IMG/VR virus record: IMGVR_UViG_2778261389_000005
Coordinates: 1 to 35,777 of that record
DNA length: 35,777 nt
DNA from: a virus
Lineage: Duplodnaviria; Heunggongvirae; Uroviricota; Caudoviricetes
Reading direction: 5' to 3' (one strand)
Both the position numbers and the translations under genes were made by a program. The notes under the pieces are model-generated. The model ran no database searches, was not told the origin of the DNA, and saw only the letters and a list, made by a program, of their open reading frames with translations. Shown piece after piece: positions 5,502 through 33,856 of the stretch. Position 1 is the stretch's first letter, and the number at the start of each line of letters is the position of its first letter.

Positions 5502-5641
5502 GTGAGATCCTCATTTTTGGGTGTTAGAATCCCCGGACCATTGATAGCGCCCATTGGGTTAACTTTGGTTTTAATGTTGTTTCCGGTGTAACTTTGGTCG
5601 GTGAGGCCGGACATGGCGGGCCCACTTCGGTGGGCTTTCGC

Positions 5642-8469: not shown

Positions 8470-8862
8470 TTACTCGGCATCGCCCTTAATCCGCCGCCCC
8501 ATATATTTGGCGTACAGATCGTCGAGTTCCTTCAGGCGCAGTGATACCGCCTTAAGAACTCCACCCTGATCCTCTTCGGGGAGTTGACGGAAAAGGCGTA
8601 AAAGCTCTTGCTCATTACTTTTTAATCCATCATTGGGCCCTATATCCTGCCCCAAAACCCAGGCTAAATTCACACCAAGCGCATCAGCTAGCTTAAGTGC
8701 GGAGTTTTTCCCAATAGTTCCCCTTACAAACCAGTTGTTAACCGACTGGGATGTTACGCCACAAATTCTGGCCAGATCTGCTTTTGAGAGATGTTTACTA
8801 TTCGTGATCTCATTGAGTCGTCTGACCTGTGGGTTATCTGATTCGTGTGTATTTTTTCTCAT
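8470..8862 (-). CDS. DicA-like HTH (XRE) repressor, paralog 2
   Basis: N-terminal HTH (LSKADLARICGVTSQSVNNW) and C-terminal LRLFRQLPEEDQ...LRLKELDDLYAKYM; about half identical to the upstream gene; alternative GTG start at 8877. Confidence 0.7.
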   Translation of the reverse strand: MRKNTHESDNPQVRRLNEITNSKHLSKADLARICGVTSQSVNNWFVRGTIGKNSALKLADALGVNLAWVLGQDIGPNDGLKSNEQELLRLFRQLPEEDQGGVLKAVSLRLKELDDLYAKYMGRRIKGDAE

Positions 8863-8881
8863 GTACAAGAGTATCACTTAG

Positions 8882-9265
8882 CTAATCAGCATCGCCCCTG
8901 ATTCTGCGATTCATGTACTTGGCATATAGTTCATCGAGTTCCTTCAGACGCAGGGAGAAGATCCTTATCATATTCTGCTGTTCTTCTTCCGGTAACTGTC
9001 TGTAGAGCTCCAGAATACGTTGTTCATCAGGCTTAAGACCATCCTTCTCTCCAACATCCTCACCAAGTAGCCAGGGGACGGACACCCCTGCAGCGTCAGC
9101 AACCGCTAATGCAGAACTTTTGCTGATTCTTCCTGTTTTGAACCAACTGGAAACAGCTTGCTTACTGACGCCAGCAACCCTGGCCATCTCTGTTTTAGAG
9201 AAACCTTTCCTGTTCAGTTCTGTAAGCCTGGAAATCAGCTCATTTGTCATTGTTTTTTCGCTCAT
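8882..9265 (-). CDS. DicA-like HTH (XRE) repressor, paralog 1, probable CI analogue
   Basis: 127 aa; HTH plus LPEEEQ C-terminal module resembling DicA; divergent from cro-like gene across operator region. Confidence 0.75.
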   Translation of the reverse strand: MSEKTMTNELISRLTELNRKGFSKTEMARVAGVSKQAVSSWFKTGRISKSSALAVADAAGVSVPWLLGEDVGEKDGLKPDEQRILELYRQLPEEEQQNMIRIFSLRLKELDELYAKYMNRRIRGDAD

Positions 9266-9363: not shown

Positions 9364-9588
9364 ATGACTGGTATTGAGAAAGCTATTCAAAAGTTCGGCA
9401 CAGGTGCGGCACTCGGAAGAGCGCTTGGATTTTCAAAAATGACAATTTCCAACTGGAAAAAAACTGGCATTCCGCCCGATCACATTCTCTCTGTTTTTGA
9501 GCTTACGGGGGTCACACCGCATGAGTTGCGGCCTGACTTATATCCAAATCCAACCGATGCCTTACCAGTGCAAGAAACGAGGACGTAA
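9364..9588 (+). CDS. Cro/YdaS-like HTH regulator
   Basis: 74 aa; HTH and GVTPHELRPDLYP segment resembling Rac prophage YdaS; AGGAGG RBS. Confidence 0.7.
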   Translation: MTGIEKAIQKFGTGAALGRALGFSKMTISNWKKTGIPPDHILSVFELTGVTPHELRPDLYPNPTDALPVQETRT

Positions 9589-9590
9589 AC

Positions 9591-10130
9591 GTGCAATCAC
9601 TATCACTTCATCAAAATAGCGGATATCAACCGGCTGCGATGATAAATCGCAATCAACCTGTCTCGGTAGATAAACATGACCAGATCCGCGATGCCGTTCG
9701 TGCGTGGGCGGGTGTAGATGGTCAGGATGTCGTTTCTGCTCTGATCATCGAAGAGTACCAGGCTCAAGGGGGAGACGAGATCACTTTCCCTGATGACCTC
9801 AGCCGACAGCGTCAGAAGCTTTTCCGCTTCCTGGATAACCATTTCAACAGCGAACGGTACCGTGAGAACGTTCGCCAGCTGACTCCGGCAATCCTGGCGG
9901 TCCTGCCGATTGAATACCGCAACCGTCTGCTACCAGAAGACAACGTTATGGCCCGCCTGGCTCGGCTGGAGAAAGAAACCAGCGAAGCGAAGATTGCCGT
10001 CGCAATGGATGCGCCACGCCATCAAAAGCTGAAAGAGTTGAGCGAGGGGATCGTGGAGATGTATCGCGTTGACCCTGGGTTAACCGGTCCACTGATGGAG
10101 ATGGTGCAGATGATGCTGGGGGCTATATGA
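9591..10130 (+). CDS. YdaT-like protein (cII-position regulator/toxin-like)
   Basis: 179 aa; LTPAILAVLPIEYRNRLL resembles Rac YdaT; immediately follows the cro-like gene. Confidence 0.6.
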   Translation: MQSLSLHQNSGYQPAAMINRNQPVSVDKHDQIRDAVRAWAGVDGQDVVSALIIEEYQAQGGDEITFPDDLSRQRQKLFRFLDNHFNSERYRENVRQLTPAILAVLPIEYRNRLLPEDNVMARLARLEKETSEAKIAVAMDAPRHQKLKELSEGIVEMYRVDPGLTGPLMEMVQMMLGAI

Positions 10131-10214
10131 CCGGTTCAAAAATGGCGAAAGCCGCGGTGCGCGAACACCAACGGCTTTCAGGTGCAAAAACAGTGCGTAA
10201 TTGCGGAGAACAGT

Positions 10215-11123
10215 ATGTCAAACACCGCTGAAATAATCAATTTCCCAAATAAAACCGAACAACCGGGAGGTCGTATGGCCGACCTGTCGAACGGGTATAC
10301 CAAGGTCGCTAACGAGATCCAACAGCTTAAGCCTCGCCTGAGACTGTCAGGCCGGGAATGGCAATGTTTTGAGGCGGTGATCTGGCTTACCTACGGCTGG
10401 AACAAGAAACAGGACCGCGTGACAAATACGGTTATTGCCGAGCTTACGGGCCTGAGCGATACGCATGTATCGGACGCGCTTAAGTCTCTCGCAGAACGCA
10501 AAATCATCTTTTCACAGAAGCAGGGCATGATGAAAATCGTCGGTGTAAACACTGACCTTTCAGCATGGATTTTAGACAAACCGGAAACGGGAAGAAAATT
10601 CCCGAAAACGGGAAAATCCTTCCCGAAATCAGGAATAACCTTCCCGAAAACGGTAGACACCCAATACAAAAACAAGAACAGTATTAAAAGATCTTCGTCC
10701 GAGAATTCTGACGAATCCTCTGACGCACGTCTGAAGAAATTTTTATCAACTCATCCTGAAGCTGCGGTCTACACACCATCCGGTGCGAAGTGGGGCTCTG
10801 CTGAAGACCTCGAGACAGCTAAGTGGATTTCCTCCAGGGTGAAGCTGATTAACCCAACCTGCAAAGCCCCGGACATGACCTCCTGGTCTAACACTGTTCG
10901 CCTGATGCGCCAGATAGACAACCGGTCGCACCAGGACATCTGCGCGCTGTATGACTGGGCTAGCAAACACCACTTCTGGCAGACCAACATCCTGAGTCCC
11001 GAAAGCCTGCGTAAGCAGTGGGACAAGCTGACAATGCAGCGTAACGCCGGAGGTGAGCAGCGCGCTGTCAAGCCAGATCTGGACTTCAACAACACTGACT
11101 GGGCCTATGGGGTGATCCGATGA
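10215..11123 (+). CDS. O: Replication initiator protein, lambda O-like
   Basis: N-terminus MSNTAEIINFP...ADLSNGY...LTYGWNK parallels lambda O; iteron-encoded PKTGKSFPKSG segment; ORF-track start 10182 is upstream. Confidence 0.8.
   Translation: MSNTAEIINFPNKTEQPGGRMADLSNGYTKVANEIQQLKPRLRLSGREWQCFEAVIWLTYGWNKKQDRVTNTVIAELTGLSDTHVSDALKSLAERKIIFSQKQGMMKIVGVNTDLSAWILDKPETGRKFPKTGKSFPKSGITFPKTVDTQYKNKNSIKRSSSENSDESSDARLKKFLSTHPEAAVYTPSGAKWGSAEDLETAKWISSRVKLINPTCKAPDMTSWSNTVRLMRQIDNRSHQDICALYDWASKHHFWQTNILSPESLRKQWDKLTMQRNAGGEQRAVKPDLDFNNTDWAYGVIR
10578..10700. repeat. Putative replication origin: four about 20-bp iterons plus AT-rich tract inside O gene
   Basis: Repeats CCGGAAACGGGAAG, TCCCGAAAACGGGAAA, TCCCGAAATCAGGAAT, TCCCGAAAACGGTAGA at 21-bp period, each with internal dyad symmetry, then A-rich sequence. 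Confidence 0.6.
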
Positions 11124-11809
11124 AATCTCTTGCAGAGCAGATGCGTAACCACGACCGCGAGCAGATGAGCCGCATGGCCCATAACCTGCCAGAGCAGTAC
11201 CAGGAGTGCGCGCCGGTCGAGCAGGTGGCGCAGGTATTCAACAAGCTGTTCAACGAGCTGCGCGCCGCGTTCCCGGCCAGCATGGCGAACTTCCGCACCC
11301 AGGAAGACCTGAACGAATTCCGCCGTCAGTGGCTGCTGGCGTTTCAGGAGAACGGGATCCACACCATGGCTCAGGTCGATGCCGGCATGCGCATTGCCCG
11401 CCGCCAGGAGCGCCCATTCCTGCCGTCGCCGGGCCAGTTCGTCGCCTGGTGCAAGCAGAGCGGCGGCGCGCTGGGCGTCAACGTTGACCAGGTGATCGCC
11501 GAATACTGGGACTGGCGTAACCGCTCGTTCGAATTCATCTCCAGCGAGCAATTTCCATGGTCGCAGCCGGTCATGTACCACATTTGCGTAGAATTGCGCC
11601 ACCGCAGCACCGAGCGCCAGTTAACGCATGGTGAACTGGCACGCGAGGCAGGCGATCTGCTGGACATGTGGGAAAGGCGCGTCACCGAGGGTAAGCCAGT
11701 GCCGCCGGTACGCCGGGCTATTGCCGCACCAGCTGCCGAGCAAGGGCCGACGCCGATCCAGCTGCTGCTGGCCAAGTACAACCGCAACAAGTCGAACGGG
11801 ATGGTGTGA
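11120..11809 (+). CDS. P: Replication protein P (helicase loader), lambda P-like
   Basis: Near colinear similarity to lambda P (MKSLAEQMRNHDREQMSRMAHNLPEQY..., RPFLPSPGQFVAWC); ATGA overlap with O. Confidence 0.85.
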   Translation: MKSLAEQMRNHDREQMSRMAHNLPEQYQECAPVEQVAQVFNKLFNELRAAFPASMANFRTQEDLNEFRRQWLLAFQENGIHTMAQVDAGMRIARRQERPFLPSPGQFVAWCKQSGGALGVNVDQVIAEYWDWRNRSFEFISSEQFPWSQPVMYHICVELRHRSTERQLTHGELAREAGDLLDMWERRVTEGKPVPPVRRAIAAPAAEQGPTPIQLLLAKYNRNKSNGMV

Positions 11810-19089: not shown

Positions 19090-19143
19090 TCATGTAAATC
19101 TGATATCGTCGCCATAGCTTCGTAGGTCGACAAAGAATTAAGA

Positions 19144-19174
19144 GCCTCGCCATCGTGCGGGGCTTTTTTATTTG
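19144..19174 (+). terminator. Rho-independent terminator (tR'-like)
   Basis: GCCTCGC-CATCGT-GCGGGGC hairpin followed by TTTTTTATTTG. Confidence 0.55.
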
Positions 19175-33707: not shown

Positions 33708-33856
33708 CAACCTGGCAGGAAATGGCCGCTGACGTCACCTTCTATTTCCGCTGGTCTGAGGACAGGGCGTGGGGAATGACCCGCGCCCGGCTGAAATGGT
33801 GGGTGTCGCAGGCATTCCGGATAAACAAGCTTAGGAAACCTGAAGACGATGAGTAA
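33429..33856 (+). CDS. Frameshift-extended tail assembly chaperone (E+E'-like), predicted -1 frameshift
   Basis: -1 frame after TTTTTTG stays open for about 55 codons (DLEALTTWQEMAADVTFYFRWSED...) to TAA at 33854-33856, overlapping tape-measure start. Confidence 0.5.

Follow-up and report, generated by a model that had tools for sequence, protein, structure and literature searches.

A mosaic lambdoid phage or prophage with a probable phi80-type replication origin in its initiator gene

Our analysis of a viral DNA stretch of 35,777 nucleotides (the window; IMG/VR record IMGVR_UViG_2778261389_000005) makes it very probable that the repeats found inside its O-like gene belong to a phi80-type lambdoid replication origin, which a mosaic lambdoid phage or prophage carries in the gene for its initiator. 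A replication origin had been proposed here by an earlier, sequence-only reading, and its proposal is supported by the identity of the initiator with phi80 gp15, by the presence of Phage_rep_O and Phage_lambda_P genes, and by the binding sites annotated in the phi80 record JX871397; no argument from sequence against a phi80-type origin was found. That the element can act as an origin is suggested by its identity with phi80 together with its homology to lambda. Publications on lambdoid phages have covered the phi80 origin, and the arrangement in which an origin lies inside the gene for its own initiator, since the late 1970s. The observation is a correct reading of an already described origin rather than a discovery, and as a discovery it has little weight, with its sites annotated in GenBank and the whole feature near-identical to that of the reference phage phi80. 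Its use is in annotation, where it establishes that the element has a phi80-type replication module and designates 10578-10724 as a presumptive cis-acting site that should not be recoded.

A typical lambdoid origin contains several, usually four, tandem iterons of about 16-19 bp with dyad symmetry. As shown in Table 1, the window holds four tandem TTCCCGAAAACGGGAA-like iterons, each with internal dyad symmetry, at a spacing of exactly 21 bp over 10578-10656, and the segment 10578-10661 can be stacked as four 21-bp units (AAACCGGAAACGGGAAGAAAA / TTCCCGAAAACGGGAAAATCC / TTCCCGAAATCAGGAATAACC / TTCCCGAAAACGGTAGACACC). A repeat search returned a family with 21, 21 spacing and inverted-repeat relations among its copies, while Tandem Repeats Finder reported 10581-10653 with a period of 21, 3.5 copies, 78% matches and a score of 90. 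When the 35.8-kb window was searched for the 16-mer TTCCCGAAAACGGGAA allowing up to three mismatches, three matches appeared, all inside the origin repeats, against an expectation of 0.31, and three were reached in 0 of 100 shuffles. In the second copy TTCCCG and CGGGAA arms enclose an AAAA centre; the first copy departs from TTCCCGAAAACGGGAA at four positions, every one of them in the left half, so that only its right half-site is kept. The four dyad repeats at 21-bp spacing claimed by the sequence-only reading were thus recovered by stacking, by the repeat search and by Tandem Repeats Finder, and they stand out against the shuffles. Since 21 bp correspond to two helical turns, the four dyads are aligned along one side of the helix. 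The unit equally equals seven codons, with a first codon position at 10599; the iterons translate as DKPETGRKFPKTGKSFPKSGITFPKTVDTQ, giving the in-frame peptide units KPETGRK-FPKTGKS-FPKSGIT-FPKTVDT, and the repetitive peptide linker described earlier was correctly seen.

Table 1. Features of the predicted origin and of the genes around it (positions in the window).
Feature	Position	Strand	Sequence	Remarks
Initiator gene, lambda O homologue (phi80 gene 15), 302 aa	10215..11123	+		origin inside
N-terminal Phage_rep_O domain segment, presumed iteron-binding winged helix	10272..10568	+		Pfam, residues 31-129 of the 313-aa ORF
Iteron 1	10578..10593	.	AAACCGGAAACGGGAA	left half-site degenerate; in 21-bp register with the other copies
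Iteron 2	10599..10614	.	TTCCCGAAAACGGGAA	perfect 6+6 dyad
Iteron 3	10620..10635	.	TTCCCGAAATCAGGAA	5/6 arm pairs kept
Iteron 4	10641..10656	.	TTCCCGAAAACGGTAG	right half-site degenerate
A-rich low-stability tract, presumed DNA unwinding element	10657..10692	.		36 nt, 72% A+T, 58% A
Conserved right arm of the origin	10694..10724	.	TTCGTCCGAGAATTCTGACGAATCCTCTGAC	near-identical to lambda and Klebsiella phage L007
Helicase-loader gene, lambda P homologue	11120..11809	+		Pfam Phage_lambda_P (PF06992), E 1.9e-49

The assignment to phi80 comes from a nearly complete identity. The initiator protein is identical to phi80 gp15 at all 302 of 302 residues (100%), the next protein matches phi80 gp14 at 228 of 229, and at the DNA level the initiator gene shares 99.7-99.8% identity with gene 15 of phi80 and with the O genes of mEp237 and HK225, two phages that carry the same replication module as phi80. 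Gene 15 carries four 'protein_bind gp15' features in the phi80 record JX871397; brought to window coordinates with an offset of +7705 (from locus L001), they fall at 10579-10593, 10599-10614, 10620-10635 and 10641-10655 and coincide with the four repeats. When 10550-10730 was aligned with phi80 and mEp237, a single difference appeared, G to A at 10670, with all four iterons identical; compared with the phi80 origin in gene 15 (JX871397, X13065), the window therefore has the same iterons, the same spacing and the same right arm, and an A-rich tract that differs at this one position. The change is synonymous, turning the Lys codon AAG into AAA at its third position, it gives the A-rich tract one more A+T base, and an A at 10670 was absent from all 85 related sequences compared. 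Binding of gp15 to the iterons is predicted, on the strength of the JX871397 annotation and of the footprints obtained with lambda and Stx phages (PMC7466680). In the open full-text literature, we found no paper describing the phi80 iterons, but only work on lambda and Stx phages. The experimental basis for the phi80 origin is reportedly to be found in Grosschedl and Hobom, 1979, and Moore et al., 1979. Both of these papers are cited in PMC3349717.

A seven-residue unit rich in Pro, Gly and Lys, repeated in frame between two domains, could also be read in another way, namely that the repeats exist only to encode a flexible protein linker (FPKTGKS four times) and that the DNA itself has no cis function. 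The variation among relatives speaks to this. Scanning viral contigs with the N-terminal domain yielded 80 loci, only close relatives (94-100% amino acid identity in that domain), and the viral-contig loci and phage records together provided 51 distinct four-iteron haplotypes as the set for a substitution test. The iteron arms varied at 9 of 48 positions compared with 13 of 20 in the spacers (Fisher p = 4e-4), first and second codon positions of the spacers varied at 8 of 12 compared with 24 of 242, or 10%, in the N-terminal domain (Fisher p = 9e-6), and third codon positions of the arms varied at 6 of 16 compared with 79 of 121 in that domain (Fisher p = 0.05, borderline), p-values which are indicative only and come from a test of limited power, the relatives being close and phylogenetically non-independent. 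Since the arms are conserved while the spacers are free at coding positions, the constraint appears to track the DNA dyad and not codon position. A peptide repeat would not need dyad symmetry in the DNA; the spacer codons change amino acids freely, and the arms are fixed and less variable at their third positions; lambda encodes a non-repetitive peptide at the same place and yet has four dyad iterons, and phi80 annotates the repeats as gp15 binding sites. We therefore give a pure linker function almost no credence and retain the phi80-type origin, for which the FPKTGKS-like peptide would be a by-product, a tolerant inter-domain linker whose sequence is dictated by the DNA site. The number of iterons also varies among the IMG/VR relatives: locus L052 has five, by duplication of iteron 3, and locus L064 has two, by an in-frame deletion of 42 bp that fuses iterons 2 and 4. 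These variants look like products of unequal recombination between iterons. We consider it very improbable that such in-frame gain and loss of 21-bp units reflects a recurrent joint tuning of origin strength and linker length, or a crippling of prophage replication.

The position of the repeats within the gene conforms to the lambdoid plan. The initiator matches Pfam Phage_rep_O (PF04492) with an E value of 5.9e-25 in the part upstream of the repeats, this domain ends at nucleotide 10568 and the iterons begin at 10578, so that the origin separates the part of the gene coding for the N-terminal DNA-binding domain from the part coding for the C-terminal one. A weak HTH_Crp_2 match covers residues 79-113 of the 313-aa ORF. 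The initiator and loader genes form an O/P pair whose stop and start overlap at 11120-11123. As for the beginning of the initiator, ATG 10215, giving 302 aa, is most likely the start, because it is the one annotated in the phi80 and mEp237 records; for the same reason we rejected GTG 10182, which the mechanical ORF list had used to give 313 aa. Searching PDB sequences with the initiator retrieved no solved relative, the only match being a marginal one to an unrelated metal-dependent regulator (E 0.009), and Rfam had nothing in the origin region.

The tract that follows the fourth iteron has the composition and the stability expected of an unwinding element. It contains 21 A, 5 T, 7 C and 3 G, the GC content drops to 0.325 and the AT skew rises to +0.63. 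In a nearest-neighbour stability scan, the gene's ten least stable 40-mers had their starts at 10652-10661, to the right of iteron 4, and reached -45.8 kcal/mol compared with a gene mean of -55.6 (sd 3.5), which places them in the top 1.2% of the whole window; an easily melted AT-rich tract thus lies directly to the right of iteron 4, with its minimum at 10652-10700. The A-rich tract that the sequence-only reading had placed after the repeats is confirmed as the least stable DNA in the gene. Beyond it comes the right arm, which contains an imperfect inverted repeat around GAATTC with arms at 10694-10702 and 10707-10715, and which equals lambda TTCGTCAGAGAATTCTGGCGAATCCTCTGAC at 29 of 31 positions (counted by eye). 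Because this block, 10694-10724, matches the right arm of lambda ori, the origin is predicted to span about 10578-10724. Of the earlier extent, 10578-10700, the start stands but the end does not, as the right arm carries the origin about 25 bp further. Nowhere in the window is the 10-10.5 bp periodicity of AA dinucleotides stronger than across the iterons, which rank in the top 0.15% of 84-nt windows; this is a signature of phased A-tracts and of predicted intrinsic curvature as found in lambdoid origins. Such curvature is said to have been described for lambda ori by Zahn and Blattner. The second strongest 10.5-bp AA periodicity of the window is found at about 34381-34480, inside the long ORF 33849-35777.

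The dyads were also considered as RNA hairpins, for instance intrinsic terminators or attenuators acting on leftward, minus-strand transcription, an idea that receives some encouragement from a scan for terminator-like sites, which picked the minus strand of iteron 2 (TTCCCGTTTTCGGGAA, then TTTTCTTCCC). However, the region contained 3 terminator-like sites compared with 2.1 (sd 1.6) in shuffles, which is not above chance, and iteron 2 was rejected as a terminator on that count. The stem has only six pairs, a scan of 9900-11300 revealed no leftward promoter-like site, and the presence of four copies at helical phasing beside a stability minimum would be left unexplained by a role in RNA. We regard a hairpin function as extremely unlikely.

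Next to lambda, the window has the same plan executed with different iterons. Common to both are four CCC...GGG dyad iterons with an A-rich centre, as well as O and P homologues; the lambda iterons 1-4 (annotated at 39034-39118) occupy the same place in gene O as the window repeats, and they are followed by an A-rich stretch and then TTCGTCAGAGAATTCTGGCGAATCCTCTGAC, just as in the window the A-rich tract is followed by TTCGTCCGAGAATTCTGACGAATCCTCTGAC. The right arm, TTCGTC.GAGAATTCTG.CGAATCCTCTGAC, is near-identical in the two. In contrast, the iteron sequence is TCCCTCAAAACGAGGGA in lambda and TTCCCGAAAACGGGAA in the window, and the annotated starts of the lambda iterons are irregularly spaced by 20, 24 and 23 bp whereas the window keeps strictly to 21 bp. 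Lambda O and the window initiator share 39% identity over their full length, and the N-terminal domain is visibly more diverged, as would be expected for a different origin specificity. The comparison with the lambda iterons, which had been put forward earlier as a check, thus showed agreement in the position within the gene, in the kind of A-rich tract and in the conserved right arm.

In lambda and the Stx phages, the origin is made up of iterons and an AT-rich tract, both midway along O, and the O protein gives footprints on the iterons (PMC7466680); earlier work reported in the same paper found the minimal unwinding fragment to be two iterons plus the AT-rich tract. Ori-lambda has likewise been defined by ITN1-4 and a high-AT region (PMC3349717), and small in-frame deletions in ITN4 or in the AT-rich tract make it defective (PMC6022878). 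The Stx phages 933W and P27 follow the same plan as the window, the middle part of O holding the iterons and an AT-rich tract (PMC7466680), but Stx origins have six lambda-type iterons where the window has four of the phi80 type. The iteron origins of theta plasmids (pSC101, R6K, RK2, P1) likewise place tandem initiator-binding repeats beside an AT-rich unwinding element. These plasmid-type origins have direct, non-palindromic repeats outside the rep gene, with DnaA boxes nearby. Compared with them, the window repeats are dyads, presumably bound by dimers, they lie inside the initiator's own coding sequence, and the helicase would presumably be loaded by a P-type protein. The nearest TTATCCACA-like DnaA-box sites are more than 2.8 kb from the origin, and their number in the window equals that expected by chance. 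A plasmid-type iteron origin of the Rep or pi class was consequently rejected, the repeats being dyads within a gene and having no DnaA-box-like site within 2.8 kb.

Phi80 identity and lambda homology suggest how the element may work. Dimers of gp15 would bind the four iterons through the N-terminal domain and, all located on one face of intrinsically curved DNA, would assemble into an O-some, whose strain would open the adjacent A-rich tract. The C-terminal domain of gp15 would then recruit a gp14-DnaB complex, from which host chaperones would release DnaB for bidirectional theta replication, and rightward transcription through the region would probably assist.

Relatives that share a part of the gene indicate how the origin is divided between the domains of the initiator. 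DNA matches to PHB10 and to Hafnia phage Meifeng extend from the N-terminal domain over the iterons and the right arm, and end at about query position 540 (window about 10720), while DNA matches to Klebsiella phages begin at query position 502 (window 10683). The O protein of Klebsiella phage ST16-OXA48phi5.2 (L007) is 80% identical at the amino acid level from residue 152 on, but its N-terminal half is unrelated, and at L007 positions 1328-1478, inside the O gene, we found different iterons, (G/C)CGCACATGAA, with a 12-bp period and arranged in two clusters. These repeats are then followed by the same AACAAGAA...ATTAAAAGATCTTCGTCCGAGAATTCTGGCGAATCCTCTGAC as in the window. Since the C-terminal half and the right arm are shared with this Klebsiella O gene whereas the N-terminal domain and the repeats are unrelated, the iterons and the N-terminal DNA-binding domain appear to be inherited as one unit; the unwinding tract and right arm would form another with the C-terminal domain and the P-type gene. 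This division is the classical specificity arrangement. It was reportedly established with lambda-phi80 hybrid phages by Furth and colleagues in 1978, and the present sequences would add another demonstration of how the two halves of the origin segregate with the two parts of the replication module.

A further possibility is that the origin is of phi80 type by descent but silent, the window being a defective prophage that no longer replicates. The window is indeed a mosaic, its first 24 kb being 15% phi80-matching and 46% mEp237-matching, and related replication modules are present as prophages in 257 of 5426 complete E. coli genomes. On the other hand, the two replication genes are intact and practically the same as in phi80, mEp237 and HK225, all of them viable phages, the four iterons are unchanged, and the sole difference in the region enriches the unwinding tract by one A+T base. 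We thus hold a silent origin to be unlikely and favour one that would still be functional. Compared with phi80, the flanking immunity region of the window is different and resembles that of mEp237, with YdaS- and YdaT-like proteins at the cro and cII positions; a phi80 replication module beside a non-phi80 immunity region is ordinary lambdoid mosaicism.

Several features of the immunity region and of the remaining window were observed in passing. On the minus strand, 8470-8877 and 8882-9265 are tandem paralogous genes for short CI-like helix-turn-helix proteins that share 55% identity; each has matches to HTH_3 and Phage_CI_repr, and a peptidase S24 domain was not detected in either. The arrangement suggests a duplicated repressor that would not cleave itself. 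On the plus strand, the YdaS-like gene occupies 9364-9588 and the YdaT-like gene 9591-10130; their Pfam families are named as toxins, and mEp237 annotates the homologues as anti-repressor and CII. Between the cII-like and O-like genes, at about 10146-10180 on the minus strand, a strong hairpin (GAAAGCCG...CGGCUUUC) is followed by the U run GCCAUUUUUG, with a fold of -27.7 kcal/mol and a z-score of -2.45. It is placed where phi80 annotates M3 RNA, the homologue of lambda oop, but its sequence differs from that of phi80 and is shared with mEp237. Finally, two matches in the window exceeded the Rfam gathering score, isrJ at 19093-19166 (+, 68.7 bits) and isrB at 5543-5640 (+, 38.2 bits), both of which are Hfq-binding sRNAs according to the Rfam description.
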